Assembly: GCA_035248565.1 (NCBI GenBank)
Contig: DATFHH010000149.1
Location: forward strand, 2,497-66,496
Source of the DNA: Pyrinomonadaceae bacterium
Lineage (GTDB): Bacteria; Acidobacteriota; Blastocatellia; Pyrinomonadales; Pyrinomonadaceae
Direction: 5' to 3'
DNA length: 64,000 bases
The notes under the pieces were generated by a model. That model was given only the letters and a program-made list of their open reading frames with translations. It was not told the origin of the DNA and ran no database searches. Below are positions 19,034 through 59,247 of the stretch, one piece after another (the stretch's first letter is position 1; the number at the start of each line of letters is the position of its first letter). The position numbers and the translations under genes are program-made.

Positions 19034-19066
19034 AATCCGTCTTCATCCGCGTCATCCGCGGCTTAC
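19034..19066. repeat. Family C element, copy C2
   Basis: AATCCGTCTTCATCCGCGTCATCCGCGGCTTAC. Contains the tyrS stop and abuts the RDD-protein start codon. Confidence 0.85.
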
Positions 19067-20266
19067 TATTCTTACAAACCTGCGCTTTCCAACTTGGATC
19101 AAGTACGATCGATCTCCACTCAGCTCGACTTCGAAATCCGTTTGCGTCCGTCGTTCACCCTCGACATAAACTCCGCCTTGTTCGATCAGCCTCCGCGCTT
19201 CGGCCATCGAGGGCGCCAACGCGAGTTCGACCAACAACCGCGGCAACTTCCACGTTCCCGATTCCAACGCACGCTCCTCAACTTCCTCCGGCGCCTGCTT
19301 GTTTCGAAACATCGCATCAAACTCGGCTTCCGCCTTGCGCGCTTCAGCGTCCGAGTAAAAATCACTCACGATTAGTTTCGCGAGTTCGGCTTTGATGTCG
19401 CGCGGATTGCGCTGCCCGCGCTCGGCACTCTCGCGCAACGATCCTATCTGCGCGATCGAAAGATCGGTACATAGTTCGTAGTAACGCCACATCAATTCAT
19501 CGGAGATCGACATCACCTTGCCGAAGATCTCCTGCGGCGGCTCGTTGATGCCGATGTAGTTGCCTAAACTCTTCGACATCTTCTGCACGCCGTCAGTGCC
19601 TTCCAACAACGGCGTGATCACCGCGACCTGCGACTCCTGTCCATATTCTCTTTGCAGATTACGGCCCATCAACAAGTTGAACTTCTGATCAGTTCCGCCG
19701 AGTTCGACGTCGGCTTCGAGCGCAACCGAGTCGTAGGCCATCACCAATGGGTACATCACTTCGTGCAGCGCGAGCGGACGGTTCGCTTCGAGTCGTTGTT
19801 GAAAGTCATCGCGCTCGAGAATCTGTTTGACGGTGACGTGTGCTGCGAGTTTGAGAAATCCGGCCGAACCCAGCGTGTCCATCCAACGCGAGTTGAAATC
19901 GATGACTGTCTTTTCCGGGTCGAGTAGTTTGAAGATCTGGTGCTTGTAGGTTTCGGCGTTCGCGTTGATTTCGTCGCGCGTGAGTTGCGGCCGCGTAGCG
20001 TTCTTGCCTGACGGATCGCCGATCATGCCGGTGAAATCGCCGATCAAAAAGATCGCCGTGTGGCCCAGCTCTTGAAACGCGTGCAGCTTGCGGATCACGA
20101 CTGTATGGCCCAAATGGATGTCGGGGGCGGTTGGATCGGCGCCGAGTTTGACGCGCAGAGGCTTGCCAGTCTTGGCTGATTTCTCAAGCTTCGTGCGCAG
20201 CTCTGCGTCGCGAATAACCTCGGTGGTGCCTTTGCTTAGATATGCGAGTTGTTCGTCGATCGTCAT
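19052..20266 (-). CDS. tyrS: tyrosine--tRNA ligase
   Basis: HIGH motif (PDIHLGH), KMSKS motif (KMSKSLGN), C-terminal S4-like domain. ATG 20266 (MTIDEQLAYL). Confidence 0.9.
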   Translation of the reverse strand: MTIDEQLAYLSKGTTEVIRDAELRTKLEKSAKTGKPLRVKLGADPTAPDIHLGHTVVIRKLHAFQELGHTAIFLIGDFTGMIGDPSGKNATRPQLTRDEINANAETYKHQIFKLLDPEKTVIDFNSRWMDTLGSAGFLKLAAHVTVKQILERDDFQQRLEANRPLALHEVMYPLVMAYDSVALEADVELGGTDQKFNLLMGRNLQREYGQESQVAVITPLLEGTDGVQKMSKSLGNYIGINEPPQEIFGKVMSISDELMWRYYELCTDLSIAQIGSLRESAERGQRNPRDIKAELAKLIVSDFYSDAEARKAEAEFDAMFRNKQAPEEVEERALESGTWKLPRLLVELALAPSMAEARRLIEQGGVYVEGERRTQTDFEVELSGDRSYLIQVGKRRFVRIVSRG

Positions 20267-20314
20267 GAGCGAATAGAGTAGCTCAACTATTGAATGGTGC
20301 GCTATCCTCATTTC

Positions 20315-21184
20315 ATGGCTACTGAAACACCTGACATCAGTCCTCTTAGCAACTGCCGTCTGGCTTTTATCGGTTGCGGCGTGATGGCGGAAGCGATTAT
20401 CGCGGGACTACTGCGCAAGAAGTTGGTTGGTCCTGAACAGATCGTGGGCATTCATCCGCGGCAGGCTCGACGCGAAGAGATGCACGTGAAGTATGGCATC
20501 GAAATGTTTGAGCAGAACCGTGAGGCAGCACTGGCTAGCGCCCCTGAAACACCGGATGCTGGTTCGATGATCATCCTCGCAGTAAAACCGCAACGTCTTC
20601 ATCGCGTGCTGGAAGAACTGAAGGGTTCGCTGCATCCGGAGCAGCTCGTCATTTCAGTTGTTGCCGGTGCGAGGATTGAAACGATTTCCGATCATCTTTT
20701 GCACGCGCCGGTCGTGCGGACGATGCCAAACACGCCCGCACAGATCGGCGAAGGTGTAACTGCGTGGACCGCTAGTCCCGAGGTGAGTGCAAAGCAGGAG
20801 AGTCAGGTTCGTGCAATGCTCGACGCACTAGGCAAGGGTGTACATGTTGAAAACGAACGACAGATTGACATGGCAACCGCGCTGAGCTCCACTGGTCCTA
20901 CGTATATCTTTCTGGTGATGGAAGCGCTGGTTGATGCCGGTGTGCACATGGGCTTCTCGCGACACGTGGCCCAGGAGCTGGTCCATCAAATGATGCTCGG
21001 ATCGGTGTTGTTTGCGATCGAGTCGCACAAGCATCCAGCGGAGTTGCGAAACATGGTGACTTCGCCAGGCGGAACCTCGGCGGAAGCGATTTATCAGATG
21101 GAGAAGGGCAGCTTGCGAACGGTGATGTCGAAGGCTGTTTGGGCAGCGTATCAGCGCGCACAATCCCTCGGGGGAAAGATTTAA
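20315..21184 (+). CDS. proC: pyrroline-5-carboxylate reductase
   Basis: FIGCGVMAEAI Rossmann N-terminus and C-terminal VTSPGGTSAEAI motif. An alternative ATG exists at 20294. Confidence 0.88.
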   Translation: MATETPDISPLSNCRLAFIGCGVMAEAIIAGLLRKKLVGPEQIVGIHPRQARREEMHVKYGIEMFEQNREAALASAPETPDAGSMIILAVKPQRLHRVLEELKGSLHPEQLVISVVAGARIETISDHLLHAPVVRTMPNTPAQIGEGVTAWTASPEVSAKQESQVRAMLDALGKGVHVENERQIDMATALSSTGPTYIFLVMEALVDAGVHMGFSRHVAQELVHQMMLGSVLFAIESHKHPAELRNMVTSPGGTSAEAIYQMEKGSLRTVMSKAVWAAYQRAQSLGGKI

Positions 21185-21213
21185 TCTGCGTCACCGCGTT
21201 CATCCGCGGCTAA
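21181..21213. repeat. Family A/C hybrid element, copy C3
   Basis: TTAATCTGCGTCACCGCGTTCATCCGCGGCTAA. Carries both convergent stop codons (proC TAA 21182-21184, purN TAA 21181-21183 on the minus strand). Confidence 0.85.
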
Positions 21214-21771
21214 AACTAATGCTACCGCTTCGGAATACAACTGGTGTTCCTGCTCCAAAATTCTCGCCGACAACGTCTCTTCAGTATCATCCTCCATTAC
21301 GGGCACAATCCGCTGCGCGATGATTGGCCCACCATCAAGCGTCTCGTCGACAAAGTGCACCGTGCATCCACTCACCTTCACACCATGAGCGAGCGCTTGT
21401 CGCTGTGCGTCCAGCCCGGGAAACGCCGGCAGCAGACTTGGATGAATGTTCAATATTCGCCCCTTGAACGCCTCGATGAAGCACGGCGACAACAATCGCA
21501 TGTATCCCGCTAAGCAAACCAGGTCAACCTTCTGTTCTTGTAAGATCGAGATGATCTCGCGTTCGTGTTCTTCACGACTGCGACCACGGCGTTCGACCAC
21601 ACGCGTTTCGAGTTCACGTTCTTCTGCGAGTTGTAGCCCACGCGCATCAGCTTTGTCGCTGATCACGATCGCGATCTCAGCCTTTGGGATCTTTCCCACG
21701 CTGACAGCATCACTCAGCGCAAGCATGTTTGATCCACGACCGGAGATGAGAATCGCGATTCTTTTCTTCAC
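21181..21771 (-). CDS. purN: phosphoribosylglycinamide formyltransferase
   Basis: ILISGRGSN, NIHPSLLP, GCTVHFVDE..DGGPII motifs. GTG start. Confidence 0.9.
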   Translation of the reverse strand: MKKRIAILISGRGSNMLALSDAVSVGKIPKAEIAIVISDKADARGLQLAEERELETRVVERRGRSREEHEREIISILQEQKVDLVCLAGYMRLLSPCFIEAFKGRILNIHPSLLPAFPGLDAQRQALAHGVKVSGCTVHFVDETLDGGPIIAQRIVPVMEDDTEETLSARILEQEHQLYSEAVALVLAADERGDAD

Positions 21772-21776
21772 GAGAC

Positions 21777-22808
21777 TTAAATCAACACCTCACGATTCCC
21801 GCTTATCACTTTTCCGATCGTGTAAACAGTCTCGCTACGACCGCGCAGGTCATTCTCGACTGTTTCAGCATCACCGGGCGAGCAGACGATCACGATGCCG
21901 ATTCCCATGTTGAACGTGCGATACATTTCACTGTCAGAAACGTTTCCAAGTCGGCGCAAGAGTTCGAATAGAGGAGGTATGGTCCATGAGTCTCGTTGGA
22001 TCTTCACCGCTGTGCCGTGCGGTAGTATTCGCGGAATGTTGTCAGTCAATCCTCCGCCAGTGATGTGCGCCAGGCCTTTGATTACGCCTTTGTCGAGCAG
22101 ATCGTAGAGGGGTCTGAGATAACTGAGATGCGGCAGCAGCAACGCGTCGCCGGCAGTCATTTCCAGTTCCGGCAGGTGAGTCTGTGGCTCGTATCCTGCA
22201 ACTTCAAAAAAGAGCTTGCGAGCGAGTGAATATCCGTTTGTGTGTAGTCCAGCAGATGGCAAGGCAAGCAGAACATCGCCGGCAGAGATGGTTTTTCCGT
22301 CGATGATTTTTTCTCGATCGACAACGCCGACAATAAAACCTGCAATATCGTATTCACCGTCCTGATAAAAACCCGGCATCTCCGCCGTTTCTCCGCCCAA
22401 CAACACACAACCATTGTCACGACAACCATTCGTCACGCCTTCGACAATGCTCGCCACAACATCGGGCGATAATTTTCCCGTCGCAATGTAGTCGAGAAAG
22501 AATAGTGGTCGCGCGCCCTGGACCAGAATGTCGTTGACGCAATGATTGACGAGATCGCGGCCGACTGTGTTGTGCACGCCTGTCGCAAAAGCGATCTTGA
22601 GTTTCGTGCCGACGCCATCAGCTGACGCAACCAGTACCGGCTGCTTCAGCTTTGGAAATGCGGCGTCAAACATGCCGCCGAAGCTTCCGATCTCGGAAAG
22701 CGTACGATCGTTGAAGGTCTGTCGCGCGAGCTCCTTGATCCTGTCCGTTGCTCGCGTCGCGGCGTCGATGTCAACACCCGCATCGCTGTATGAAATCGGC
22801 TTTTTCAT
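21777..22808 (-). CDS. purM: phosphoribosylformylglycinamidine cyclo-ligase (AIR synthetase)
   Basis: MKKPISYSDAGVDID.., DGVGTK, GGETAEMPG motifs. ATG 22808 lies inside repeat C4. Confidence 0.9.
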   Translation of the reverse strand: MKKPISYSDAGVDIDAATRATDRIKELARQTFNDRTLSEIGSFGGMFDAAFPKLKQPVLVASADGVGTKLKIAFATGVHNTVGRDLVNHCVNDILVQGARPLFFLDYIATGKLSPDVVASIVEGVTNGCRDNGCVLLGGETAEMPGFYQDGEYDIAGFIVGVVDREKIIDGKTISAGDVLLALPSAGLHTNGYSLARKLFFEVAGYEPQTHLPELEMTAGDALLLPHLSYLRPLYDLLDKGVIKGLAHITGGGLTDNIPRILPHGTAVKIQRDSWTIPPLFELLRRLGNVSDSEMYRTFNMGIGIVIVCSPGDAETVENDLRGRSETVYTIGKVISGNREVLI

Positions 22809-22830
22809 CCGTGTTATCCGCGGCTTATTG
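22806..22830. repeat. Family C element, copy C4
   Basis: CATCCGTGTTATCCGCGGCTTATTG. Contains the stop of the ComEC-like gene and the ATG of purM. Confidence 0.8.
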
Positions 22831-23964: not shown

Positions 23965-23990
23965 TCTCGACCCGCCTCAAAAATTTTTTT

Positions 23991-24079
23991 GCCACAAAGA
24001 GGCACAAAAGTCACAAACGATTAATCAAGCTTAACGCTTCATCCCAAATGCATTTGTGCTTTTTGTGCTTCTTTGTGGC
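23991..24079. repeat. Family D inverted repeat, copy D2 (long form)
   Basis: GCCACAAAGAGGCACAAAAGTCACAAA (23991-24017), 33-nt spacer, then CATTTGTGCTTTTTGTGCTTCTTTGTGGC (24051-24079). Abuts the purF stop. Confidence 0.85.
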
Positions 24080-25495
24080 TCAAGTTACCGATTCATGGTC
24101 GCGTTCCCACATTGTTTCCGCTTCACTCGTGATGCGCGTGGGGTATTTCCCGTTCCAGCAAGCAACGCATGAGGAGTCGGGGCTGATTCCAGTCGCTGCA
24201 ATCATTCCTTCGAGCGACAGGTAACCAAGCGAGTCGGCCTCGATGAATTTGCGAATCTCTTCCACCGACATCTGCGCGGCGATCAGTTCAGACTTGTTTG
24301 GTGTATCGACGCCGTAGTAACACGGGCTGATCGTCGGCGGACAACTGATACGCACGTGAATCTCTTTCGCGCCCGCTTCACGCACCATGCGCACTATCTT
24401 CTTCGACGTCGTGCCGCGCACGATCGAGTCGTCGATCAAGACTACGCGTTTGCCGGTGATCAGATCTCGAACGGGATTGAGTTTTATTCGCACGCCAAAC
24501 GAACGAATCGATTGTCGCGGTTCGATGAAGGTCCGGCCAACATAGTGATTGCGAACCAGCCCAAAACGAAAACTCAGACCACTTTCAGCCGCATAACCGA
24601 TCGCCGCGACCACGCCCGAGTCAGGCACCGGAACGACGATGTCAGCATCCGCAGGCTGCTCGACTGCAAGTTGCCGGCCCATCTTGTGTCGCGACTTATT
24701 GATCGATTTACCGTAGATCAACGAATCAGGCCGCGCGAAATAGACGTGCTCGAACAGACACATCGAATGCTTGCGCGGCGGCAGCGGATTCGACGATCGC
24801 AAACCTTCTCGATCGATCACTATCATCTCGCCCGGTTCGACGTCGCGCACGTACTGAGCGTCGATCAAATCAAATGCACACGTTTCGGAAGCGATCACCC
24901 ACGCATCGCCAAGCCGTCCCAAAGCGAGCGGACGAAAGCCGCGACTATCGCGAATCGCGATCAGCTCCGTGGGCGTCAGGAAGAGCATCGAAAATGCGCC
25001 TTCCGTTTCGCACAAGACCTGCGGAATCGCCTCGCGGATGGGCGAGCGCGATCGGGCCACACCATGAAGCACGACCTCCGTGTCGGAAGTTGAAGAAAAG
25101 ATCGCGCCGTCGCGTTCGAGGCGTTGCCGCTCTTCGCGTGCGAATGGGAGATTGCCGTTGTGACAAACTGCGATCTGCCCGTGCTGGCAATTGACGAGAA
25201 ACGGCTGCGCTTCGAGCAACGACACCTCGCCGGCGGTTGAATAGCGCACGTGTCCAATCGCGCTCATGCCGCGCAAACGATCGAGATGCGTCTGACCAAA
25301 TGCTTCGGACACGTGACCCATCGCGCGTTCGAGACGCAGTTCGGCGCCGTCGGAAGCGACGATGCCGCACGACTCCTGACCTCGATGCTGCAGCGCGTAT
25401 AAACCGAGGTAAGTCAATCGCGCGGCTTCCGAATGTCCGTAGATTCCGAAAACACCACACTCTTCATGCAGTTTGTCGTTCTCGTTTTCAGTCAC
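24080..25495 (-). CDS. purF: amidophosphoribosyltransferase (propeptide + Fe-S type)
   Basis: MTENENDKLHEE|CGVFGIYG (Ntn Cys after an 11-residue propeptide), PRTase VLIDDSIVRGTT, Cys ligands CPPTISPCYYG and CVACWNG. GTG start. Confidence 0.92.
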   Translation of the reverse strand: MTENENDKLHEECGVFGIYGHSEAARLTYLGLYALQHRGQESCGIVASDGAELRLERAMGHVSEAFGQTHLDRLRGMSAIGHVRYSTAGEVSLLEAQPFLVNCQHGQIAVCHNGNLPFAREERQRLERDGAIFSSTSDTEVVLHGVARSRSPIREAIPQVLCETEGAFSMLFLTPTELIAIRDSRGFRPLALGRLGDAWVIASETCAFDLIDAQYVRDVEPGEMIVIDREGLRSSNPLPPRKHSMCLFEHVYFARPDSLIYGKSINKSRHKMGRQLAVEQPADADIVVPVPDSGVVAAIGYAAESGLSFRFGLVRNHYVGRTFIEPRQSIRSFGVRIKLNPVRDLITGKRVVLIDDSIVRGTTSKKIVRMVREAGAKEIHVRISCPPTISPCYYGVDTPNKSELIAAQMSVEEIRKFIEADSLGYLSLEGMIAATGISPDSSCVACWNGKYPTRITSEAETMWERDHESVT

Positions 25496-25542: not shown

Positions 25543-25570
25543 CATAGATTTCCGCAGATGAAGACGGATA
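25543..25570. repeat. Family A/C-like three-word element
   Basis: CATAGATTTCCGCAGATGAAGACGGATA. The ATG of the cytochrome c gene (25558) is inside the middle word. Confidence 0.5.
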
Positions 25571-25938
25571 TGGCTTTTGATATGATTCGAAACGTGATGC
25601 AGATTGCCTTGTCAGTATTGTTGATCATCGCTGTGAGTTGGCTGATCTACGCTAAAGCGAACACCGCGCGTCCAGCGCCGCAGTTGTATCGTCGCTATTG
25701 CATCTCGTGTCATGGAAATGACGGAAAGGCGAAGACTTCGAAAGGCAAGTTTAGCCATGCGCGCGATCTTTCTGACCCGCAGTGGCAAGCAGACGTCAGC
25801 GACGAACGCATCTTCAACTCGATCATGAATGGGCGCAATGTGCGCGGTAACATGCCCTCCTTTAGCAACAAACTGAATGAAAAAGAGGCCGACTCGCTGG
25901 TGGATTTTGTGCGCCAGCTTAAAGCACAGCAGCAGTAG
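25558..25938 (+). CDS. membrane-anchored c-type cytochrome (class I-like)
   Basis: N-terminal TM helix, CISCHG haem-binding motif, distal NMPSF Met. Confidence 0.7.
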   Translation: MKTDMAFDMIRNVMQIALSVLLIIAVSWLIYAKANTARPAPQLYRRYCISCHGNDGKAKTSKGKFSHARDLSDPQWQADVSDERIFNSIMNGRNVRGNMPSFSNKLNEKEADSLVDFVRQLKAQQQ

Positions 25939-25944: not shown

Positions 25945-26439
25945 ATGTTTTCATTTCGCAGTTTAGTCATTCTCGCCTTGCAAGTCGGCTTATTGATCGT
26001 GCTCTTCGGTGCAGGTTGGGCGATCTATAGACAACTTCCTTCGAGCGCGGCGGACGTTAGATCCGATCAAAAGACCACGACACTGCAAATTATTATTCGA
26101 CAGCCTCCGGAGAGTGTTGGACCAGCGCTGGACGTCGCGGTGAGTCTTTACCCGGTGGATATTGTCGCGGTGCGTCACGAGTTCTTCACTGAGCCGCGTG
26201 CTGGTAAGCGCTTTGAAGATTTTCTGAAAGAGCGCATGAAAGGGCGTTCGCCGATCAATGCACAGTTGGACAAGCAAGGACAGGGATCGGTGACGTTGGC
26301 GCCCGGCAGTTGGTGGTTGCATGCGACGCTTTCCGGTGACGAACAGCTCGAGTGGCGTTTGCCGGTGACAGTCACCGGTGCGAGGCAAGTCGTCGAACTA
26401 ACACCTCAGAACGCCTACACGAGAAGCAAGACGTTTTAG
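25945..26439 (+). CDS. hypothetical membrane-anchored protein
   Basis: 164-aa ORF starting 6 nt after the cytochrome c stop. One N-terminal TM helix. No family recognised. Confidence 0.5.
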   Translation: MFSFRSLVILALQVGLLIVLFGAGWAIYRQLPSSAADVRSDQKTTTLQIIIRQPPESVGPALDVAVSLYPVDIVAVRHEFFTEPRAGKRFEDFLKERMKGRSPINAQLDKQGQGSVTLAPGSWWLHATLSGDEQLEWRLPVTVTGARQVVELTPQNAYTRSKTF

Positions 26440-26456
26440 CCACAAAAAGGCACAGA
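26439..26456. repeat. Family D half element, copy D3
   Basis: GCCACAAAAAGGCACAGA, fills the gap between stop 26437-26439 and ATG 26457. Confidence 0.6.
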
Positions 26457-27410
26457 ATGCTGGCACTGCGGGTACAGAACAAACATCTGGCAGTCGAAGA
26501 TGTCGCGAAGCCTCATCAACCTGACGAGGCGCTGGTGCGTGTGCTCTTGTCCGGCATCTGCAATACCGATCTCGAAATCGCGCGCGGCTACGCTGGTTTT
26601 AACGGCACGATCGGACACGAGTTTGTTGGCGTTGTTGAAGACAGCACCGATCGCAAACTCGTTGGTCAACGCATCGTCGGAGAAATAAACGCCGGCTGCG
26701 GCAAGTGCGATCTTTGTCGTGCAGGCGACTCCCGCCATTGCCCAAATCACACCGTGCTCGGCATCGTCGGCCGCGATGGCGCACACGCCGAGTTTCTTCA
26801 ACTTCCTGCACGAAACCTGTTGCTCGTTCCTGACAACATTACTGACGAACACGCAGTCTTTACTGAACCACTCGCTGCAGCGTGTGGAATTCTCGAGCGC
26901 GTCGCGATTTCGAAGTCAGATCGCGTTGCAGTGATCGGCGATGGCAAACTCGGACTGCTCTGCGCACAGGCGCTCGTGGTGACCGGCGCACAGTTGCTCC
27001 TCATCGGCAAACACGAATCCAAACTGCGCATCGTGGATAAGCGTGGCATCGAAACTACATCTCCGGAAGAAGCAGCCAAACGCCGGCGACAGTTTGACGT
27101 GGTTGTCGAAGCATCAGGCGCCGCAGCGGGTTTCGGACTCGCGCTCGATCTTCTTCGTCCAAAGGGTCAACTGGTCCTGAAATCCACTTTTCACGGCAAG
27201 ACAGAAATCGATGCCGCGCGGATCGTCGTTGACGAGATCTCAATCGTCGGTTCGCGTTGCGGGCGCTTCAAACCAGCCCTACATCTGTTACAGAAAGGCG
27301 CGGTCGACGTCGATAGTCTGATTAGCGAGGAATACCCGCTATCAAGAGGTGTTGATGCAATGCGCCGTGCCGCCATGAAAGGCGTGCTAAAAGTCCTGCT
27401 ACGACCATAG
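26457..27410 (+). CDS. zinc-dependent alcohol dehydrogenase family (MDR) oxidoreductase
   Basis: GICNTDLE..GHEFVGVV catalytic Zn motif and structural Zn CGKCDLCRAGDSRHC. ATG 26457 (MLALRVQNK). Confidence 0.85.
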   Translation: MLALRVQNKHLAVEDVAKPHQPDEALVRVLLSGICNTDLEIARGYAGFNGTIGHEFVGVVEDSTDRKLVGQRIVGEINAGCGKCDLCRAGDSRHCPNHTVLGIVGRDGAHAEFLQLPARNLLLVPDNITDEHAVFTEPLAAACGILERVAISKSDRVAVIGDGKLGLLCAQALVVTGAQLLLIGKHESKLRIVDKRGIETTSPEEAAKRRRQFDVVVEASGAAAGFGLALDLLRPKGQLVLKSTFHGKTEIDAARIVVDEISIVGSRCGRFKPALHLLQKGAVDVDSLISEEYPLSRGVDAMRRAAMKGVLKVLLRP

Positions 27411-27415
27411 ATTGA

Positions 27416-27514
27416 GCGCCTCCTTGGAGTGCGGCGGCTTGACGCCGCTTTGTTATCGATCACGCCCCGATCGAGGCCAAAGCGGCGTCAAGCCGCCGCA
27501 CTCCAAGGAGGTGC
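27416..27514. repeat. Family B element, copy B1 (34-bp perfect arms, 25-nt spacer)
   Basis: CCTCCTTGGAGTGCGGCGGCTTGACGCCGCTTTG (27419-27452), spacer ttatcgatcacgccccgatcgaggc, then CAAAGCGGCGTCAAGCCGCCGCACTCCAAGGAGG (27478-27511). Confidence 0.92.
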
Positions 27515-27597
27515 CTTCTTCTAATGGCAAATGGAAAACCCTTTCGCTATACTCTAGCCCTTTCCCTGGGCTTGGATTTTCCAGAAGGTGGTGAAAT

Positions 27598-30783: not shown

Positions 30784-30794
30784 TCTGTGGATGG
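30755..30794. repeat. Family A element, copy A4 (left outer arm missing)
   Basis: CGCAGATT, loop gatttaatag, then AATCTGCGTAATCTGTGGATGG. Encodes the last residues and stops of both convergent genes. Confidence 0.8.
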
Positions 30795-31304: not shown

Positions 31305-31335
31305 GTTATCCGCTCAATCCGTGTTTCATCTGCGG
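31305..31335. repeat. Family A/C-like three-word element
   Basis: GTTATCCGCTCAATCCGTGTTTCATCTGCGG, just downstream of the asnB-like stop (31345). Confidence 0.55.
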
Positions 31336-31344
31336 CAAAAGTCC

Positions 31345-33303: not shown

Positions 33304-33305
33304 TT

Positions 33306-35459: not shown

Positions 35460-35461
35460 GC

Positions 35462-37459: not shown

Positions 37460-37465
37460 GAAATA

Positions 37466-46366: not shown

Positions 46367-46388
46367 CAATGGAGTGTTTGAATCGGGC

Positions 46389-47586: not shown

Positions 47587-47598
47587 TGATCGTTTGTA

Positions 47599-47627
47599 GC
47601 CACAGATGACGCGGATGAAGACAGATT
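47599..47627. repeat. Family A/C hybrid three-word element, copy C10
   Basis: GCCACAGATGACGCGGATGAAGACAGATT, between the dehydrogenase stop (47629) and the wecB ATG (47586). Confidence 0.75.
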
Positions 47628-47628
47628 T

Positions 47629-48963: not shown

Positions 48964-48967
48964 AGAA

Positions 48968-49030
48968 CCATCCACAGATTACGCAGATTATACATTACAC
49001 AGATCTGTGAAATCTGTGTAATCTGTGGAT
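48968..49030. repeat. Family A element, copy A7 (nested/composite)
   Basis: CCATCCACAGATTACGCAGATT (48968-48989), then an inner ATTACACAGATCTGTGA with 12-nt palindrome CACAGATCTGTG (48998-49009), then AATCTGTGTAATCTGTGGAT (49011-49030). Sits in a divergent intergenic region. Confidence 0.9.
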
Positions 49031-49034
49031 AAAA

Positions 49035-50552: not shown

Positions 50553-50572
50553 ACGCGGATGACGCGGATTAT
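50541..50572. repeat. Family C element, copy C11 (three words)
   Basis: AGCCGCGGATAAACGCGGATGACGCGGATTAT. Holds both convergent stops (permease TAA 50550-50552, polymerase TAA 50569-50571 on the minus strand). An inverted word TCATCCGCGA follows at 50582-50591. Confidence 0.88.
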
Positions 50573-52344
50573 TTTACCCATTCATCCGCGATTTCAGTTT
50601 CGACTTTAATGGGCACCGTCTTCAGGTATTCCTGGCCCGCGGCGCACATCAGGCGTTCGACTTTTTCAGCAACTGCCTGCGCTTCATCAGCATCCGTCTC
50701 GACGACAATCTCATCATGAATGATGTTCACGATCTGTGCGTTCGTATCGCTTAATTCTTCTTTCAACAACTTGAGCGCGCGTTTCAGGATGTCAGCACTT
50801 GTGCCTTGAATCGGCGTGTTCTTCCCGTTGCGTTGCGTCATCGAGATCTGTTGTCGATCATTTTCGTCGTAACGAAAGCGCACCAGACGTCCCGAGGCCG
50901 TGCGCGCCTGCCGCTCACTGACTGCGCGGTTCGCCGCGTCGCGCAAGTAAGCATCCAGTTGCCGATACGTCGCAAAATAGCGGCGCAACACGTTCTCAGC
51001 ATCTGGCACGCTCAAGCCAGTCATCATCGCAAAGCGTTGCGCGCCGATGCCATAAACCACACCGAAGTTCAATCGCTTTGCAAAATCACGCTGCTCTTTT
51101 GTGACCTGGTCCAGCGAAGCGTTGAAGACCTGCGCGGCCGTCACACGATGAAGATCCGCGCCGGAATTGAAAGCCTCCATGAAACCGCGATCGCCGGAAA
51201 ACTCCGCCAGGATTCGCAACTCGATCTGCGAATAGTCGGCGATGATCAACTTTCGTCCTTCCGGATAACCACTGAAACATCGCCGGTATTCGATCGTGTG
51301 CGGCACCTGCTGAATATTCGGATTCGTGCAGGCGAACCGGCCGGTTGGCGCGCCGATTTGGCGGAAGTCGGCATGCAGTCGCTTCGTCATGGGATTGATC
51401 ATCTCGATCATGTTCTCGCCGTAACTCGTGAGCGCCTTCTGCACAGTGCGATACTCGAGCAACGTTCCGATGATCGGATATTCCGCCGCGAGTGGCTGGA
51501 GTTTCCAGTTGCGCGTCGATTCAGGGACCGGAATGCCGAGGCGGGTCAGTGCTTTAGTCAACTGCTGCTGCGAATCAAGGTTGATGTCTTCGCGCTGTGG
51601 TCCACCAAACAACGAACCTTGCGACGATTCTTCCGCCAGCACTTCCTGCAACTGTTCGGCAAGCTCGCGCCGCCGTTTTTCGACAATGCTCAACTGCTCG
51701 AGCCAGCGGTCCTTGTGCATGTAAAAGCCAGCCAACTCGATGTCGACCACCGGCATCACGCATTCAAATTCGAGTTGCGCACACCTCACCAGGGACTCGG
51801 CTTTTAGTCTCTCGATCAACTTCTCACGCAGCGGCAGCAGGATGGCGGCGTCGCGCGCGGCGTATTCCAGTTGGGCTTCAGACAACTCGAAATTCCAGTC
51901 GCTCAAACGTTCGGTTTTGTCGACAGATTGATTTAGATAACGACTGGCGACTGTTTCGAGCCCGTGGCGTTCTTCGATGTCGCCCGCGCCGACGAGTTGA
52001 CTTGCCAGCAACGTATCGAACAGTCCACCAAGATCGACGCCGAGATTGTGCTTGATGAATTTCGCGTCGAACTTTGCGTTGTGCGCGATCTTGATTGGGC
52101 GTGGAGCAGCGAGGAGTCGTCGCAGTGGCGCGAGTGCTTCGCTCTTCGCTGCGTCGCCGTTGCTGAAGTGATCGAAGTCGAAGATGAAAACGCAATCAGG
52201 CCCGGCGAGTTGGAGTAGTCGCAATCGCGAGGTAAATGGATCGAGTTCGGTGGTTTCGGTGTCGAGCCCCACGACGGGTTGGGTCGTGAGGGTTTCAATT
52301 GCTTTCCGAACTTCTTCGGCAGTTTTGATTATTTGATAATTCAT
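50569..52344 (-). CDS. family A DNA polymerase, Klenow-like (3'-5' exonuclease + polymerase, no 5' nuclease domain)
   Basis: Exo I VGLDTETT, Exo II AHNAKFD, Exo III YAARDA. Pol motif A DYSQIELR, motif B RDFAKRLNFGVVYG, motif C HDE. 591 aa. Confidence 0.88.
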   Translation of the reverse strand: MNYQIIKTAEEVRKAIETLTTQPVVGLDTETTELDPFTSRLRLLQLAGPDCVFIFDFDHFSNGDAAKSEALAPLRRLLAAPRPIKIAHNAKFDAKFIKHNLGVDLGGLFDTLLASQLVGAGDIEERHGLETVASRYLNQSVDKTERLSDWNFELSEAQLEYAARDAAILLPLREKLIERLKAESLVRCAQLEFECVMPVVDIELAGFYMHKDRWLEQLSIVEKRRRELAEQLQEVLAEESSQGSLFGGPQREDINLDSQQQLTKALTRLGIPVPESTRNWKLQPLAAEYPIIGTLLEYRTVQKALTSYGENMIEMINPMTKRLHADFRQIGAPTGRFACTNPNIQQVPHTIEYRRCFSGYPEGRKLIIADYSQIELRILAEFSGDRGFMEAFNSGADLHRVTAAQVFNASLDQVTKEQRDFAKRLNFGVVYGIGAQRFAMMTGLSVPDAENVLRRYFATYRQLDAYLRDAANRAVSERQARTASGRLVRFRYDENDRQQISMTQRNGKNTPIQGTSADILKRALKLLKEELSDTNAQIVNIIHDEIVVETDADEAQAVAEKVERLMCAAGQEYLKTVPIKVETEIADEWVK

Positions 52345-52349
52345 ATAAA

Positions 52350-52399
52350 GCCATCCACAGATTACACAGATTAATCAATCTGCGTAATCTGCGGATGGC
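52350..52399. repeat. Family A palindromic element, copy A8
   Basis: GCCATCCACAGATTACACAGATT, aatc, then AATCTGCGTAATCTGCGGATGGC (two A/G differences between arms). Contains the MFS stop (52375). Confidence 0.9.
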
Positions 52400-53583
52400 T
52401 TCACAAAGATCAACAGCAGCACGGCAGCAGTTGCACCCATAACTGCGCTGACCAGAAACGCCGTTGTCGGTCCTTTCCAATCCCAAATCATACCCATCAA
52501 CAGCGAAGCAGGAAACACCGTGATACCGAAAGCAAGATTGTACAAGCCATACGCGGTGCCGCGTTGTTCCGGACGCACAAGATCCGCCACCAACGCCTTC
52601 TCAGCGCCCTCCGCCAACCCAAAGTAAAGACCGTAAATCAAAAACAGAATCCACAGCGACGCTTTGCTCGTCGCAAAGGCAAATCCGGCGTAAACAGCCG
52701 CGTACAATGCCCATCCCGAAACGATCAAACTCTTGCGTCCAAACCGATCTGAAAGATCTCCACCAAACAGCGAACTCAGAACTTTGCTGCCATGATGAGC
52801 GGCCCAAAGCAACGGCACCATCGCGGTCGACACTCCTGTGTTCGTCGCCCGCAAGATGAGAAAACTGTCAGATGAGTTTGAAAGGGTGAACAGCGCAAGC
52901 ACAAGCAGAAAGCGTTTGAAGTTGTTGTCAAAACCACGCAGCGTGAATCTCGGAATCTCCGCTCCTCGTGGCGCTTGCACCGGCGACTCGCGCATGAAAA
53001 AGATCGCGACTAACACTGCCATGAATGCCGGCACTGACGCGATGAGGAATATCCGTGTGAACTCACCCGCAGTCGGAAAGCCGTAGTTAGCAACGAATAG
53101 AACGACAAGTAAGTAGCCGATAAGTGGTCCAATAACCGCGCCCGCGTGGTCCATCGCACGATGAAAACCAAACGCGAGTCCGCGTTGCGAGATGTTGACT
53201 GTGTCGGCGATCATCGCATCACGCGGGGCTGTCCGCACTCCCTTACCGACGCGATCGGTCAGCCGGATCGCAAGCACCTGTGTCCACGATTGAGCAAACG
53301 CTAAAAGAGGACGCGCAATCGATGCGAGCGAGTAACCGGCGACGACCAGCAGCTTTCGTTTTGCAAGCCGATCGCTGAGATAACCGGCAAATAGTTTCAG
53401 CAGACTTGATATCGACTCGGCGAGTCCCTCGATGATCCCGATCGCTCTAGCTGAAGCGCCCAGAGTCATCGTGAGAAAGACGGGCAGCAGCGGATAAATG
53501 ATCTCGCTCGAGGCGTCGTTGAGCAGGCTAACCAGACCAATCGCGACTACGTTTCGTGGAAGACTGCGATACCGGCCCCACAA
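52375..53583 (-). CDS. MFS transporter
   Basis: About 12 TM helices and an MFS loop motif (DRLAKRK). The ORF is open to ATG 53694, but that would overlap queF by ~100 nt. A TTG at 53583 is proposed, so the start is uncertain. Confidence 0.72.
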   Translation of the reverse strand: MWGRYRSLPRNVVAIGLVSLLNDASSEIIYPLLPVFLTMTLGASARAIGIIEGLAESISSLLKLFAGYLSDRLAKRKLLVVAGYSLASIARPLLAFAQSWTQVLAIRLTDRVGKGVRTAPRDAMIADTVNISQRGLAFGFHRAMDHAGAVIGPLIGYLLVVLFVANYGFPTAGEFTRIFLIASVPAFMAVLVAIFFMRESPVQAPRGAEIPRFTLRGFDNNFKRFLLVLALFTLSNSSDSFLILRATNTGVSTAMVPLLWAAHHGSKVLSSLFGGDLSDRFGRKSLIVSGWALYAAVYAGFAFATSKASLWILFLIYGLYFGLAEGAEKALVADLVRPEQRGTAYGLYNLAFGITVFPASLLMGMIWDWKGPTTAFLVSAVMGATAAVLLLIFVKPSADYAD

Positions 53584-53971: not shown

Positions 53972-54000
53972 TGCCGGATCTTAACCCATCCGCACAAGCG

Positions 54001-54098
54001 GCGCCTCCTTGGAGTGCGGCGGCCTGGCGCCGCTTTGGCCTCGATCAAGCGCCATCGATAACAAAGCGGCGTCAAGCCGCCGCACTCCAAGGAGGCGC
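54001..54098. repeat. Family B element, copy B3 (inverted orientation relative to B1/B2)
   Basis: GCGCCTCCTTGGAGTGCGGCGGCCTGGCGCCGCTTTG (54001-54037), 24-nt spacer (reverse complement resembles the B1 spacer), then CAAAGCGGCGTCAAGCCGCCGCACTCCAAGGAGGCGC (54062-54098). A single CCATCCGCACA word lies just outside at 53986-53996. Confidence 0.92.
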
Positions 54099-54863
54099 TC
54101 AACTCAACGCTGCACGATTGCCACGGCCTATGGCGAAGATCTTGATCAGCACGAGGCCGGCGACAAAACCACCAACGTGCGCCGCGTACGCAACGCCACC
54201 TTGTTGTGAGCCGCCGCCAAACACGCCCAAACCACTGATCAACTGAAACGCGAACCAGATCCCGATTGCCACCCACGCAGGAACAGCTGTGAGAAAGCGG
54301 AAGAGAATCACCGTAACCCGCCTTGAAGGATAAAGCAGGATGTAACCACCCAACACTCCTGAAATCGCTCCCGATGCGCCGAGACTCGGAACCAGCAGAC
54401 TGCTTTGATCCGTCGCGAACGCTGCCGTTGCAAACACATGGGCCAACGAAGCGAGCACTCCGCAAATTAAGTAGAAGAAAAGATATCTTGTATGGCCCAG
54501 GCGATCCTCGATGTTGTCGCCGAAGATCCAGAGGAAGAGCATGTTGCCTCCGATGTGCAAAATGCTTCCGTGCATGAACATCGACGTGAACAGCGTCGTG
54601 TAGACTGAAACCGGCGTTACAGCCAATCCGGGTTGCAGGAGTCGTTGTCCCGTAATTGCATCAACTACCACATGGCTTTGAGTAACGACGTCGTGACCCG
54701 TAATAATCTCCAAAGGCACGGTTGAAAACGCATACGTAAATTGAGTGTCGCTTCCGAGCTTCTGTAGAACAACAAAGACAAAGATATTCAGGGCAATGAT
54801 CCCGTAGTTGATAATCGGCGTGATCGTTCTGTCTGAGTTGTCGTCGTACAGCGGAAGAACCAT
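54099..54863 (-). CDS. rhomboid family intramembrane serine protease
   Basis: HIGGNMLFL (H..N) and GASGAISGVLG (catalytic Ser) motifs. 6 TM helices. Confidence 0.88.
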   Translation of the reverse strand: MVLPLYDDNSDRTITPIINYGIIALNIFVFVVLQKLGSDTQFTYAFSTVPLEIITGHDVVTQSHVVVDAITGQRLLQPGLAVTPVSVYTTLFTSMFMHGSILHIGGNMLFLWIFGDNIEDRLGHTRYLFFYLICGVLASLAHVFATAAFATDQSSLLVPSLGASGAISGVLGGYILLYPSRRVTVILFRFLTAVPAWVAIGIWFAFQLISGLGVFGGGSQQGGVAYAAHVGGFVAGLVLIKIFAIGRGNRAALS

Positions 54864-56393: not shown

Positions 56394-57302
56394 TTATCGA
56401 CCCCAGCGCAGTTTGTCGCGCAACACGTCGAAATAGTTTCGATTCATCGGTTGAATGAGATTGAAAGTCGTGCGGCTTTTGCGAATCGTCACTTTATCTT
56501 CCGGTTCGAGGGGAAATCCAACTTGTCCGTCGAGCGTCAATGCAACCTCTTCATGCTCAGTCTTCAGCAACAACTCGATCTCGGCATTGTCCGGCACGAC
56601 GATGGGACGGTTGGAAAGCGTAAACGGACAAATCGGAGTTATGACCACTGCATTCATTGAGGGAAAGATTACTGGTCCACCGGCGGAGAGGTTGTAAGCG
56701 GTCGAGCCTGTGGGCGTTGAAACGATCAAGCCGTCAGCGCGGAACGAATTAACAAAGTGGCGGTTAAGATAAGCTTCGATCTCGATGATGCGGGCCAGCG
56801 CTGATTTGTTGATTACAACATCGTTGAGAACACGATTACTTGTAATGACGATGTCGCCGCGACGAAGCTCCACCGACAGCATGACGCGTTTATCGAGTTG
56901 GTAATTGCCCGCGAGGATCGACTCGAGCGCGCTGTAAAGTTCTTCAATGCGAAACTCGGCGAGATAGCCGAGGCCGCCGTAGTTGACTCCGAGTACCGGC
57001 ACTTCCTGATCGCCGATCGTCCGCGCGGTGGCGATCATCGTTCCGTCGCCGCCGAGCACGAGGATCAAATCGACCTTGTCGGCGAGTTTGTCCTCTTGAA
57101 CTTCATCGACCGGACAGCCGGTCTGGTGCTCGATGCGTTCGCGCTCGATTTCCGGACCACCGACGAGCTGAATGTTTCGCTCGGCAAGCCACACGACCAG
57201 CTCGCAGATCGTCTTCAGGGCGTCAGGTTGGTGCGGTTTAAGGACGATGCCTATCCGCGTGATTGGCGACATTTGCGTTGCAGGATACGCATCCGTGTTC
57301 AT
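56394..57302 (-). CDS. nadK: NAD+ kinase
   Basis: LVLGGDGTMI motif, NxGxLGFL-like NYGGLGYL, C-terminal beta-sandwich domain. ATGA overlap with the tlyA stop. Confidence 0.9.
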   Translation of the reverse strand: MNTDAYPATQMSPITRIGIVLKPHQPDALKTICELVVWLAERNIQLVGGPEIERERIEHQTGCPVDEVQEDKLADKVDLILVLGGDGTMIATARTIGDQEVPVLGVNYGGLGYLAEFRIEELYSALESILAGNYQLDKRVMLSVELRRGDIVITSNRVLNDVVINKSALARIIEIEAYLNRHFVNSFRADGLIVSTPTGSTAYNLSAGGPVIFPSMNAVVITPICPFTLSNRPIVVPDNAEIELLLKTEHEEVALTLDGQVGFPLEPEDKVTIRKSRTTFNLIQPMNRNYFDVLRDKLRWGR

Positions 57303-57322
57303 CCGCGCAAATCCGCGGCTAA
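57289..57322. repeat. Family C element, copy C13 (three words)
   Basis: GCATCCGTGTTCATCCGCGCAAATCCGCGGCTAA. Spans the tlyA stop / nadK start overlap. Confidence 0.88.
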
Positions 57323-58057
57323 TTCATACAAAACGAGGAACTCCACATTTCCTTCCGCGCCTTTAATTGGCGACTCAATCACGTTCACAACTCTCAACCC
57401 AAGCGCCGTCGCCGCACGGTTGACTTCCTCAATCACCCGCGCTCGCTTTTCCGCATTGCGGACAATGCCGCCACTGCCAACCTCTCCTTTACCAACCTCA
57501 AACTGTGGTTTGATTAGCGTCACGATCGAGCCATCATCCACCAGCAACGGAACGATCGCCGGCAGCACTTTCGTCACCGAAATAAACGATACGTCGATCA
57601 CCGCCAGATCAAATCTCTGCGGAAAGTCTTCGGGTTTCAGATATCTCGCATTCACACCTTCTCTAACTTCCACGCGCGCATCGTTGCGCAGTCGCCAGTC
57701 AATTTGGTTGTGTCCCACGTCAAGAGCAACAACTCTCTTCGCGCCATGTTGCAGCAGACAGTCAGTAAATCCACCGGTTGAAGCGCCAACGTCGAGACAC
57801 GTCAGTCCTCGAACGTCGATCTGAAACTCGCGCAGTGCGGCTTCGAGTTTCAGTCCGCCGCGTCCGACGTAACGAGTCGTCGGATCCTCAGCGCCTTTAA
57901 CGCGAATTGTTGAGTTTGTATCGAACAGGTAGGAAGGTTTTTCGACGCGCTGGTCGTTGACGAGCACCACTCCGGCCATCACCATCGCCTGGGCTTTGGT
58001 GCGCGATTCGGCGAGGCCTCGCTCGACGAGCAGTTTATCGATACGCTCACGCTTCAC
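57299..58057 (-). CDS. tlyA: TlyA family rRNA (cytidine-2'-O)-methyltransferase
   Basis: N-terminal S4 domain (RIDKLLVERGLAESRTKAQ) and FtsJ-like MTase (CLDVGASTGGFTDCLL). GTG start. Confidence 0.88.
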   Translation of the reverse strand: MKRERIDKLLVERGLAESRTKAQAMVMAGVVLVNDQRVEKPSYLFDTNSTIRVKGAEDPTTRYVGRGGLKLEAALREFQIDVRGLTCLDVGASTGGFTDCLLQHGAKRVVALDVGHNQIDWRLRNDARVEVREGVNARYLKPEDFPQRFDLAVIDVSFISVTKVLPAIVPLLVDDGSIVTLIKPQFEVGKGEVGSGGIVRNAEKRARVIEEVNRAATALGLRVVNVIESPIKGAEGNVEFLVLYELAADLRG

Positions 58058-58097
58058 AGGACTTACAGGATAATCTTTATCATGTAAATCCTGGTAC

Positions 58098-58349
58098 TTA
58101 AGCGCGTCGCGTCACGGCCCGCGGCGTGTCACTCAAGCGCAACTCCGCGGCGCACTCGTGACACAACCAGACGAGTATGTGTGGCGCATCGGACCAAAAG
58201 AATGAACTCACCTTGCCTGCTACTCTCACCGCATCGTCGACGCGTAACCGCTGCAACGCCTGAATATAAAACGCCCCATTGTAGAAATCACCATCCGCGC
58301 CTTCGTCACGATGAATACACTCCCGCTCACGAAACATCTGCCTGGTCAT
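58098..58349 (-). CDS. hypothetical small protein (Cys/His-containing)
   Basis: 83-aa ORF with ATG start. Contains ECIH and CHEC. No family recognised, so coding status is uncertain. Confidence 0.35.
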   Translation of the reverse strand: MTRQMFRERECIHRDEGADGDFYNGAFYIQALQRLRVDDAVRVAGKVSSFFWSDAPHILVWLCHECAAELRLSDTPRAVTRRA

Positions 58350-58487
58350 AATGTTTCACCATATTCCTCGCGCCACCCGCGCGAAATATGAACGTTATTC
58401 AAGTGTCGGGAAATTGTTACTGTGTGAGTTGAAAAACAGGGCACCCACCTGGTTGGAGTCAGATGATGCCATTCGATCAGGTTCTCG

Positions 58488-59105
58488 TCAATACGGTTTT
58501 TTGCGACCCTCGAATATCTCATCCAGGTTCGAGAGATCGCGCTCGTCGTGGTGATCGGCACGGTTGCGGCGCTCGCGCCTCATCACGCGACGTGCGCGTC
58601 GTTCCTGCCACTGATCGTAAAGCACGGCGTCGCGAATCTGTTGAAGCTGGTCTTCCTCGCTCACGTTTGGCAGATCGCGGGGCTCAATCGATTCTGAAGG
58701 ACGTTTCACTACGGCTCTACGTTTAACGACTGGATCTTTCTTCGGTGCGTCTGTCGCAGTGACAGAACTATCTGCAGGATTCTCAGCCGCCGATACTTCG
58801 CTCATGACGCTTTCATCTACCGGTAACGGGGCTGTGGTGACCACCGGCGTCGCGATTTGAGTACCTAAGTTGGAAGCAGTTCGCAGTCTCAGATACGCAG
58901 CCAACAGTGCCGAACCGGCGCCCAGCAACATCGCGAGCGCAAACGCGCCGCCCAGAAACCAGTGTCTGCGATGTCTCACCCTCGCGTTGATTTTTTCCAG
59001 AGGCACGACTGGCCGCGCCGTCAGAATCGTTCGCTCGTCATCGAATTGCGGCGACAGTGGCGGCACAGAGGTTTCGGGTGAGTTCTCCAACGTGTATTCG
59101 TTCAT
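58488..59105 (-). CDS. hypothetical single-pass membrane protein
   Basis: ~205 aa. Basic stretch then TM helix (HWFLGGAFALAMLLGAGSALLAAYL). C-terminus is Arg/Asp-rich. No family recognised. Confidence 0.5.
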   Translation of the reverse strand: MNEYTLENSPETSVPPLSPQFDDERTILTARPVVPLEKINARVRHRRHWFLGGAFALAMLLGAGSALLAAYLRLRTASNLGTQIATPVVTTAPLPVDESVMSEVSAAENPADSSVTATDAPKKDPVVKRRAVVKRPSESIEPRDLPNVSEEDQLQQIRDAVLYDQWQERRARRVMRRERRNRADHHDERDLSNLDEIFEGRKKPY

Positions 59106-59232
59106 CTTCAATTGCTACTCGGAAATCGTTGCAATCACGAGGCCACGCCATTTTTGGTACGGTTTGAGTGGGGAGAAGGACGAAAATCTTCCGATTTGGT
59201 GCACTAAAACAACGCGCTGGTTGTTGTGATTT

Positions 59233-59247
59233 TTAGCCGCGGCTTAA
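59233..59247. repeat. Family C core (near-palindromic single unit), copy C14
   Basis: TTAGCCGCGGCTTAA. Encodes ..SRG* of dxs on the minus strand. Confidence 0.6.

Follow-up and report, generated by a model that had tools for sequence, protein, structure and literature searches.

Why do unrelated proteins encoded in one stretch of a genome end in the same few residues? This question is raised by a 64,000-nucleotide (nt) stretch of DNA from a Pyrinomonadaceae bacterium (GenBank assembly GCA_035248565.1, contig DATFHH010000149.1; hereafter the window), for which a preliminary description quoted fourteen C-terminal tails and proposed that they are encoded by short dispersed repeats that also supply the stop codons. 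Translation of the open reading frame (ORF) ends reproduced all fourteen tails at the named genes, and each of the fourteen tail-coding stretches lies within a repeat copy. Pfam supports the identities of tyrS, an amino-acid permease (APC), dxs, a PMT_2/GT-C protein, a GT1 glycosyltransferase, tlyA, purN and a heparinase II/III-like protein, and also of a methyltransferase, an MFS transporter, two asparagine synthases, an aldehyde dehydrogenase (ALDH), a receiver-domain protein (the response regulator) and wecB. Judging from orthologous sequences, native C-termini have been replaced or extended by residues that the repeats encode. We consider it likely that the tails are tolerated by-products of interspersed repeats that saturate gene junctions and resemble repetitive extragenic palindromic (REP) sequences, transposable elements of the miniature inverted-repeat type (MITEs) and short tandemly repeated repetitive (STRR) sequences. 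The repeat copies that encode the tails are listed below, with the tail-coding stretch, stop included, in brackets.

19034-19065, minus strand: family A array of three units that fills the entire spacer from the tyrS stop to the RDD ATG; tyrS tail ..SRG*, codons AGC CGC GGA TGA (19052-19063)
21181-21214, minus strand: A arm between convergent purN and proC; purN tail LAADERGDAD* (21181-21213), with the proC stop abutting
30755-30801, unstranded: B element common to ALDH (plus) and the response regulator (minus); tails LIESA* (30766-30783) and ..IHRLRRFY* (30766-30798)
35460-35495, minus strand: A array of three units that stops a few nt short of the ATG of the following gene; GT1 tail LAADDRG* (35472-35495)
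36655-36686, minus strand: A array; methyltransferase tail ..RAAD* (36674-36685)
37466-37490, plus strand: A array TTAGCCGCGGATGACGCGGATTAAG, whose complement encodes the GT-C tail ..IRVIRG* (37466-37486)
42507-42560, unstranded: B hairpin; asnB2 tail NPQITQIKSA*, through arm, loop and far arm (42524-42556)
44483-44515, minus strand: A array ending at the asnB2 ATG (..GGATTATG); heparinase-like tail LAADNADL* (44489-44515)
46377-46492, unstranded: C element, an inverted doublet of about 110 nt; wecB tail GVSLECGGLAPL* in one arm (46447-46485)
50539-50598, plus strand: A array; APC permease tail ..WSRG* at its start (50541-50552)
52344-52405, unstranded: B hairpin; MFS tail PSADYAD* reads through one arm, with the stop in the loop (52375-52398)
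57291-57322, minus strand: A array of three units; tlyA tail LAADLRG* (57299-57322)
59233-59250, minus strand: minimal palindrome TTAAGCCGCGGCTAA, a footprint-like A remnant; dxs tail ..LSRG* (59233-59247)

The frequency of these ends argues against a coincidental likeness between tails and repeats. RG is the C-terminal dipeptide of 7 of the 50 window proteins, compared to 0.27 expected from the RG dipeptide frequency (P=1.2e-8), and AD and SA end three proteins each. At least 14 stop codons fall within repeats that cover 2.9% of the window (binomial P=9e-11). With element intervals drawn by hand and purN included, a repeat contains the stop, or has it as its terminal triplet, at 25 of the 50 gene ends, 8 further stops lie 0-3 nt from a repeat and 5 more at 4-12 nt, giving a total of 38 inside or within 12 nt. 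The stop is directly flush with an element in 16 genes, and all three stop triplets are represented among them. The pattern is also wider than first reported, as a further family, D, and one E-type copy are involved.

The repeats follow several designs. In family A, TTAGCC precedes two or three 9-nt units, CGCGGATNA, arranged head to tail, with a degenerate last unit, and the arrays often finish at the ATG of the next gene; a full hairpin is found in some relatives, and mostly a single arm in the window. Family B is a 41-60-nt hairpin in which ATCCACAGATTACGCAGATT is followed by a loop and the reverse complement, whereas in family C a REP-like unit with its own small stem-loop is doubled in inverted orientation. 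Family D, which the preliminary description did not name, comprises hairpins of the family B design based on CCACAAAGAGGCACAAAG and has termini of the TTAGCC/GGCTAA type in common with family A. D copies lie flush with the stop codon, or provide it as their terminal triplet, at five gene ends. The E type is built of CAGGAYTTACA units and is represented by a single hairpin in the window; its units are common in relatives, where they yield tails such as ..GQDLQD* on purN. In all, approximately 36 copies in 64 kb occupy 31% of the non-coding bases, with 27 arrays of 2-3 units at a spacing of 9-10 nt. Unrelated loci share arms of 20-40 nt, and likewise C elements of 110 nt, with 82-100% identity.

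The stems of families B and D are 19-29 base pairs (bp) long and are predicted to fold stably, with energies of -41.2 kcal/mol (z=-11) for the B hairpin at 7971-8040, -27.1 (z=-7) for that at the asnB2 end, -26.7 (z=-5.6) for the D hairpin at 1244-1287 and -103.6 for the C element at the wecB end (z range -5.6 to -18), while single A arms fold weakly. Each C arm contains a 7-bp GC-rich mini-hairpin between invariant TTGGAGT and TTTG. Four of its seven pairs show compensatory changes and 93% of cells are paired, which none of 500 shuffles matched, in an alignment of only 12 arms. These arms are located at 27415-27457, 46386-46428, 54000-54042 and 63661-63738, and further copies occur in the related loci L007, L018 and L094; the C copy at 63655-63740 has two arms with different mini-stems, each internally paired.

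We combined the window with 80 loci returned by a genome scan with tyrS (1.31 Mb in total). These loci are nearly all from Pyrinomonadaceae or Acidobacteriota, with 72-87% protein identity and largely conserved synteny. NCBI annotation assigns the proteins of the window to Pyrinomonadaceae. The set contains 264 strong hairpins, or, at a looser threshold, 640 compared to 128 in shuffled sequence, and 118 of the 264 (45%) have arms periodic at 7-11 nt, with tandem units of 7-10 nt that belong to many unrelated unit families. The TTAGCC terminus was considered as a superfamily signature; it holds for A and D in the clade of the window, yet is found at only 8 of 526 hairpin ends family-wide. The idea that GGA motifs mark CsrA sites was dropped, as families B and D lack GGA. 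A scan against Rfam 15 matched no repeat family, with only a tRNA-Ser at 61301-61388 above the gathering score. The 9-nt units CATCCACAG (B arms, e.g., 7980-7988) and TTATCCGCG (A units, e.g., 22812-22820) resemble the DnaA box TTATCCACA, probably by coincidence.

How such repeats end a reading frame depends on the family. The elements had been described as carrying stops in several frames on both strands. This is only partly correct: the family A consensus has stops in two of three sense frames and one of three antisense frames, and a B arm, read as CATCCACAG..., is stop-free in all frames; B tails therefore end in the loop or the far arm. A-type fusions occur in all three frames, which fits frame-blind insertion, and identical tails are found on other genes in other species (..KKAADERR* on an MBL gene, RVRAAD* on tyrS). 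The convergent ALDH and response regulator genes overlap by 18 nt (30766-30783) and both stop in one B element. At this site, the native ALDH sequence CGCAGATT serves as the partner of the B arm.

One alternative is that the tails are ancestral, or artifacts of assembly or annotation, and resemble repeats by coincidence. Orthologues were compared for ten of the fourteen genes: tyrS, purN, ALDH, tlyA, dxs, MFS, APC, the methyltransferase, the response regulator and wecB. The other four, GT-C (57-58%-identical matches only), GT1, the heparinase-like gene and asnB2, are part of a variable polysaccharide gene cluster and had no close orthologue in the loci examined. In all ten, homology stops at or just before the repeat-encoded residues, and the relatives have different, mutually similar termini, indicating, as had been proposed, that native C-termini were replaced or extended by repeats that now provide the stop.

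Most of the 80 tyrS relatives end in ..RVRG[E/S/T]* (in longer form ..GKRRFVRVRG[E/S/T/N]*), where the window has ..RIVSRG*. Close relatives end in RVRGRG*, RVKSRG* or RVKNRG*, and in approximately ten relatives different ends, also derived from units, stand at this position (RVRAAD*, ..SAADLRG*, GNTD*). Relatives of ALDH end in ..RAQIDVESPQ* rather than LIESA*, those of dxs in ..RAKPxRVLS*, and those of wecB in ..ALEEFAPVS*, ..EEFDHA* or similar, the window protein having about 10 extra residues from the C arm. Homology of tlyA with about 30 relatives ends at ..FLALY(E), MFS relatives share ..VKP followed by unrelated residues, and the single methyltransferase relative found (L066, 71% identical) ends in ..LCVARRVD*.

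Two genes lend the ancestral explanation some support. Relatives of the APC permease end in ..IWRRKG* and ..FVWSRKK.., so that its WSR is probably native and only the last one or two residues of the quoted tail are clearly repeat-derived. The sequence IHRL[R/H]R of the response regulator resembles a normal receiver-domain helix and is common to dozens of closer relatives, which share KTIHRL[R/H]R..; more distant ones end in ..LLATCATHLQSR*, and the comparison points to an old B arm fixed as coding sequence in the closer relatives. Some other codons inside elements, QID in ALDH and VKP in MFS, are likewise probably native sequence that matches the repeat by chance. With regard to artifacts, the ORF ends are taken straight from the DNA, a contig of a soil metagenome-assembled genome (MAG) in ENA matches the first 19.9 kb of the window at 100% identity, and 3.2 kb inside that stretch reappears unchanged in an independent Logan assembly from a different run. 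Given the other ends found in the orthologues, ancestral tails are refuted for most of the genes, and an origin of the pattern in ancestry or artifact is extremely unlikely.

The case of purN (21181-21771) illustrates how far the change may go. The core of the protein in this clade ends in ..EAVAxVL and is followed by a species-specific tail, in some species only 2-4 unrelated residues. More distant relatives retain ..SGxYEIxGRRVxRK*, and solved PurN structures run approximately 20 residues beyond window residue 186-189. By this comparison PurN has lost about 15-20 ancestral residues, which leaves the protein of this clade shorter by that number than distant relatives and all solved structures, and it may be a naturally truncated, functional glycinamide ribonucleotide (GAR) transformylase.

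In a search for strain-level polymorphism, exact-protein look-ups for tyrS and purN returned zero matches and that for the rhodanese only the same genome, and the closest relatives found have 84-93% DNA identity to the window. They were obtained via RDD protein homologues, and L163, L166 and L172 are among those compared below with the window, whose remaining repeat copies are as follows.

1244-1287, unstranded: D hairpin at a convergent gene junction, each side flush with a stop (TAA/CCACAAAG..GTGG/CTA)
3787-3848, unstranded: hairpin of mixed A/B units, 2 nt past the E2 stop
5286-5317, minus strand: A array abutting the E1-beta stop (TGA/GCCGCGGAT)
7971-8040, unstranded: B hairpin abutting the E3 (lpd) stop (TAA/AGCCATCC)
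9896-9951, unstranded: B hairpin between the convergent rhodanese and OMP1 genes, identical in the independent Logan assembly
13320-13385, unstranded: B hairpin whose interval has its end 6 nt, and whose arm itself has its start 14 nt, after the OMP2 stop
16951-16975, plus strand: A arm 4 nt past the thiolase stop, in the orientation opposite to relatives at that site
18186-18207, minus strand: degenerate D arm in the RDD/thiolase spacer
22800-22827, minus strand: A array that supplies the MBL TAA stop; its last unit, CACGGATG, contains the purM ATG (22804-22806)
23990-24082, unstranded: D hairpin right 3' of the purF stop (TGAGC/CACAAAG)
25553-25572, plus strand: two A-like units that end in the cytochrome c ATG
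26437-26460, plus strand: D half element whose terminus is the TAG stop of a hypothetical gene (25945-26439)
27408-27524, unstranded: C element directly 3' of the ADH stop (TAG/ATTGAGCGCC)
31305-31340, minus strand: A-like array 4 nt past the asnB1 stop
33274-33305, minus strand: B half element in the spacer from the ADH-GFO stop to the asnB1 ATG (..AGATTATG)
38790-38826, plus strand: A-like array in the spacer between methyltransferase-2 and GT-C
47596-47628, plus strand: A/B-like array GTAGCCACAGATGACGCGGATGAAGACAGATTT abutting the UDP-Glc dehydrogenase stop
48957-49032, unstranded: B hairpin in the divergent spacer between UDP-Glc dehydrogenase and APC
53996-54107, unstranded: C element whose terminal triplet is the rhomboid TGA stop
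58057-58093, unstranded: E-type hairpin directly upstream of tlyA
61399-61506, unstranded: D-type cluster just 3' of tRNA-Ser (61301-61391), overlapping the gltX ORF start
62985-63013, plus strand: B half element at the gltX stop (TGA/AAACCATCCAGAG)
63655-63740, unstranded: C element immediately 3' of a SnoaL-like gene

Several of these copies have neighbors worth recording. Immediately after the tRNA-Ser(GCT) gene at 61301-61391, clustered D-type arms extend into the beginning of the gltX ORF, which makes the true gltX start uncertain. The tandem paralogues at 9964-13203 and 13392-16742 encode large outer-membrane beta-barrel proteins (CarboxypepD_reg plus OMP_b-brl_4) with segments that are 73-76% identical, and a B hairpin follows each. 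The stretch from 31345 to 48975 is a long same-strand polysaccharide biosynthesis cluster with two asnB genes, glycosyltransferases, methyltransferases, a flippase, the heparinase-like gene, wecB and UDP-glucose dehydrogenase. A repeat is present in about three-quarters of the junctions between these genes.

Junctions shared with these relatives show rapid turnover of the repeats: arms are lost, units slip, and elements are present in one genome and absent from another. The purN/proC junction carries a full A hairpin in L172 (TTAGCC, three units, loop, three units reversed, GGCTAA), the purN-side arm alone in the window and L163, and in L166 only a footprint, TTAGCCGTCTAA, similar to the minimal palindrome found in the window where dxs ends. 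Opposite arms survive at the thiolase 3' end, one in the window and the other in L166 and L172. The D half elements of the window at 26437-26460 and 18186-18207 are full hairpins in L172 (TTTAGCC..GGCTAAA at the former), and neither the D hairpin that follows purF nor the C element that follows ADH is present in L172. At the tyrS junction, L163 has exactly one 9-nt unit fewer, and L053 has an exact 9-nt duplication, TAACACGGATAACACGGATG, relative to TAACACGGATG in many relatives.

The changes at the tyrS junction raise the possibility of a purely local origin, in which native 9-nt sequences at gene ends slip in place and the likeness between loci reflects a favored motif. Consistent with this, native gene ends resemble repeat units or repeat ends at four junctions (CGC GGA at tyrS, AGC CGC at APC, CGCAGATT at ALDH, AAGCCA at MFS). 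However, the recurrence of arms and C elements at unrelated loci and the presence and absence of entire hairpins between close relatives speak against it. The motif is also no general start or stop signal, with only 15% of ACGGATG sites preceding likely gene starts, many of them at the same orthologous locus. Overall, a purely local origin appears very improbable. The related proposal that the units act as a start-codon signal was rejected: ACGGATG is only modestly enriched at starts, much of this comes from one orthologous locus, and AGGAG-type Shine-Dalgarno sequences predict starts better.

A repeat can also provide a start codon. At the MBL/purM junction, L172 is element-free and has a GTGA stop/start overlap, while in the window the A array forms both a new MBL TAA and a new purM ATG, the latter in CACGGATG. 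By this comparison the repeat supplies start as well as stop (22797-22813).

Do the repeats merely accumulate at junctions, or are they placed at stops? In the 1.31-Mb set, in which gene models outside the window are ORF proxies, 102 hairpins at co-directional junctions are closer to the stop and 47 closer to the start. When only co-directional spacers of 150 nt or longer are counted, 44 of the 53 hairpins lie on the stop side (median 18 vs 174 nt). One explanation is homing, in which the insertion machinery recognizes translation stop sites or their context, so that the coincidence of repeat and stop arises by targeting rather than by a selective filter. The 16 flush stops of all three triplets would fit such targeting, as would the D hairpin 2 nt past the purF TGA at a site that is element-free in L172. 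On the other hand, divergent junctions are about as rich in hairpins (33 of 151) as co-directional ones (149 of 642), many copies lie within the last codons and not at the stop, and neither a fixed target triplet nor a consistent target duplication was found. Constraint on promoters and 5' untranslated regions near starts would produce a similar skew. On balance we regard homing to stops as unlikely.

A second explanation is that the hairpins are selected as 3'-end punctuation, acting as non-canonical terminators, mRNA stabilizers or cistron insulators, with the tails incidental. The stop-proximal bias and the 38 of 50 window gene ends with an element within 12 nt are consistent with this idea, as are the GC-rich mini-hairpins of the C arms, which carry TTTG(T)T after their four covarying pairs and face in both directions. 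No sense-strand excess of G.U over A.C mismatches was found (131 vs 114), and a scan for intrinsic terminators gave no clear excess (33 sites vs 25.7±5.1 and 33 vs 23.0±4.4 in shuffles) and no T-tail signal above shuffles. Few of the terminator-like sites coincide with elements (one B and one D copy, some of the C arms and a few A copies), and the repeats as a group do not match the intrinsic-terminator pattern of a GC-rich stem-loop plus T-run. Moreover, family A is mostly a single, weakly folding arm, elements also lie within obvious operons and divergent spacers, and arms are freely lost between close relatives. Selected punctuation is possible though rather doubtful.

Returning to the reading of the tails as by-products of junction-saturating repeats, several observations weigh against it. 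Where at least 60 nt of free space is available, 14 of 54 hairpins begin within 5 nt of the stop, compared to 1.9 expected under uniform placement, or 3.8 if hairpins are confined to the half of the spacer next to the stop. To explain this excess, a pure by-product model has to invoke constraint on promoter-proximal DNA. These counts, it should be noted, are inflated, as orthologous junctions of related genomes are non-independent samples. Unrelated families occupy the same post-stop position in different species, e.g., at the thiolase 3' end, which could reflect selection for function. The microhomology between native gene ends and repeat ends at tyrS, ALDH, APC and MFS hints at a more specific mechanism, as a lead rather than a result. 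Mobility itself is inferred solely from dispersal and presence/absence differences. The elements are palindromic along their whole length, and no target-site duplication consistent between occupied and empty sites was found in comparing the window with L172 and L166, with possible exceptions of GC at purF and TTA..TAA at purN. No transposase gene was found among the window proteins in Pfam scans, and a tblastn search of approximately 2.2 Mb with an approximate E. coli query for RAYT, the cognate Y1 transposase of REPs, a weak test, gave a best E value of 0.96. A more far-reaching alternative, that a lineage-wide system is placed at translation stops through homing, or through selection for a 3'-end signal that a putative protein reads in 9-nt register, seems quite improbable. 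If true, it would account for family replacement at one post-stop position and for the microhomology, and the C-termini and start codons of neighboring genes would be continually rewritten across Pyrinomonadaceae.

The comparisons show how the tails arise. Junctions are only a few nt long, so that repeat copies come to lie flush with the stop or inside the last codons of the upstream gene, and are then altered by loss of a single arm, slippage of 9-nt units and small indels. The reading frame enters the repeat and continues to the first in-frame stop, be it the TAG or TAA of the terminus, the TGA or TAA of the unit spacer, or a TAA or TGA in the loop or far arm. Since family and frame set this stop, the resulting tails are stereotyped (SRG*, LAAD..*, IRVIRG*, ..SADYAD*, ..IHRLRRFY*, ..SLECGGLAPL*). 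Under the by-product reading, the repeats themselves would spread as REP/MITE-like selfish DNA, with tails tolerated because extreme C-termini are dispensable, and the same process could replace a start codon, as at purM.

In kind, the phenomenon is already known, as repeat-supplied stops have been reported for GTAG REPs and for TAACTGA repeats, while in the literature on Acidobacteria repeats and MITE-encoded ends we found no description of the families reported here. The termini of GTAG REPs supply TAG stops (Di Nocera, De Gregorio and Rocco 2013, PMC3733652). Like the repeats of the window, GTAG/CGTC REPs are short, high-copy palindromes that are mostly intergenic, near or overlapping coding regions and preferentially downstream of genes (PMC3733652). 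By definition a REP is an imperfect palindrome of 20-40 nt in many intergenic copies; families B, D and C conform to this, whereas A is mostly a non-palindromic single arm. The GTAG/CGTC tag is absent: A and D have TTAGCC termini (with one GTAGCC copy, at 47596), B is untagged, and C has GGAGT before the stem. Arms of A, B and D are tandem 9-10-nt units rather than one imperfect palindrome. Only family C is an inverted doublet comparable to a REPIN, with a covarying small stem-loop and conserved flanks in each arm. A canonical GTAG REP, GTAGGGGCGGCCCTCTGTGGCCGCCC, does occur after the MBL gene in the related locus L019, and the database wecB homologues P0282, P0285, P0293 and P0348 have N-terminal extensions (e.g., ATEGHPYK, GRPRRAAPTK) that look like mis-called starts in a GTAG-REP-type repeat.

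TAACTGA heptamer repeats of Beggiatoaceae, cyanobacteria and Bacteroidetes overlap stops because the unit carries them, and in BOGUAY the upstream stop of 13 ORFs is overlapped by partial or complete repeats (MacGregor 2015, PMC4679880). The likeness to the window lies in tandem short units (7-9 nt) within the few nt between a stop and the next start (PMC4679880). The arrays described here differ in being usually a palindrome arm with 2-3 units of 9-10 nt, and in the coexistence of several unrelated unit families; TAACTGA provides stops in all three frames, the A unit in only two of three. By the general definition of short tandem intergenic repeats, head-to-tail units of 5-11 nt, the window arrays belong to this class.

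The STRR heptamers of cyanobacteria are likewise short tandem intergenic repeats, and the Rickettsia palindromic elements and Neisseria Correia elements are MITE-type elements that alter coding ends or insert in frame. In outline, MITEs resemble the window repeats as small non-autonomous palindromes that contribute amino acids, stops or starts to host genes. They differ from these repeats, in which no signature of terminal inverted repeats with a target duplication was found and of which most copies are far shorter (25-60 nt); the repeats also affect only the extreme C-terminus and one start codon, with no internal insertion. Alteration of coding ends has been described for Coxiella MITEs (PMC5896051) and enterobacterial RU/ERIC elements (PMC2759123) as well, and the accounts, again in outline, mention implications for protein evolution and intragenic copies.

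The orthologue evidence shows that interspersed repeats can repeatedly overwrite the last residues of conserved housekeeping enzymes in abundant soil bacteria, with tyrS, dxs and ALDH ending in new sequence. Predicted protein starts and ends in such MAGs are partly repeat-derived, so that stereotyped tails and false extensions at the N-terminus are passed on to database families. The repeats are also useful as markers of recent genome change, and their tight post-stop position offers a testable case for 3'-end signals in Acidobacteria, where terminators are poorly known.

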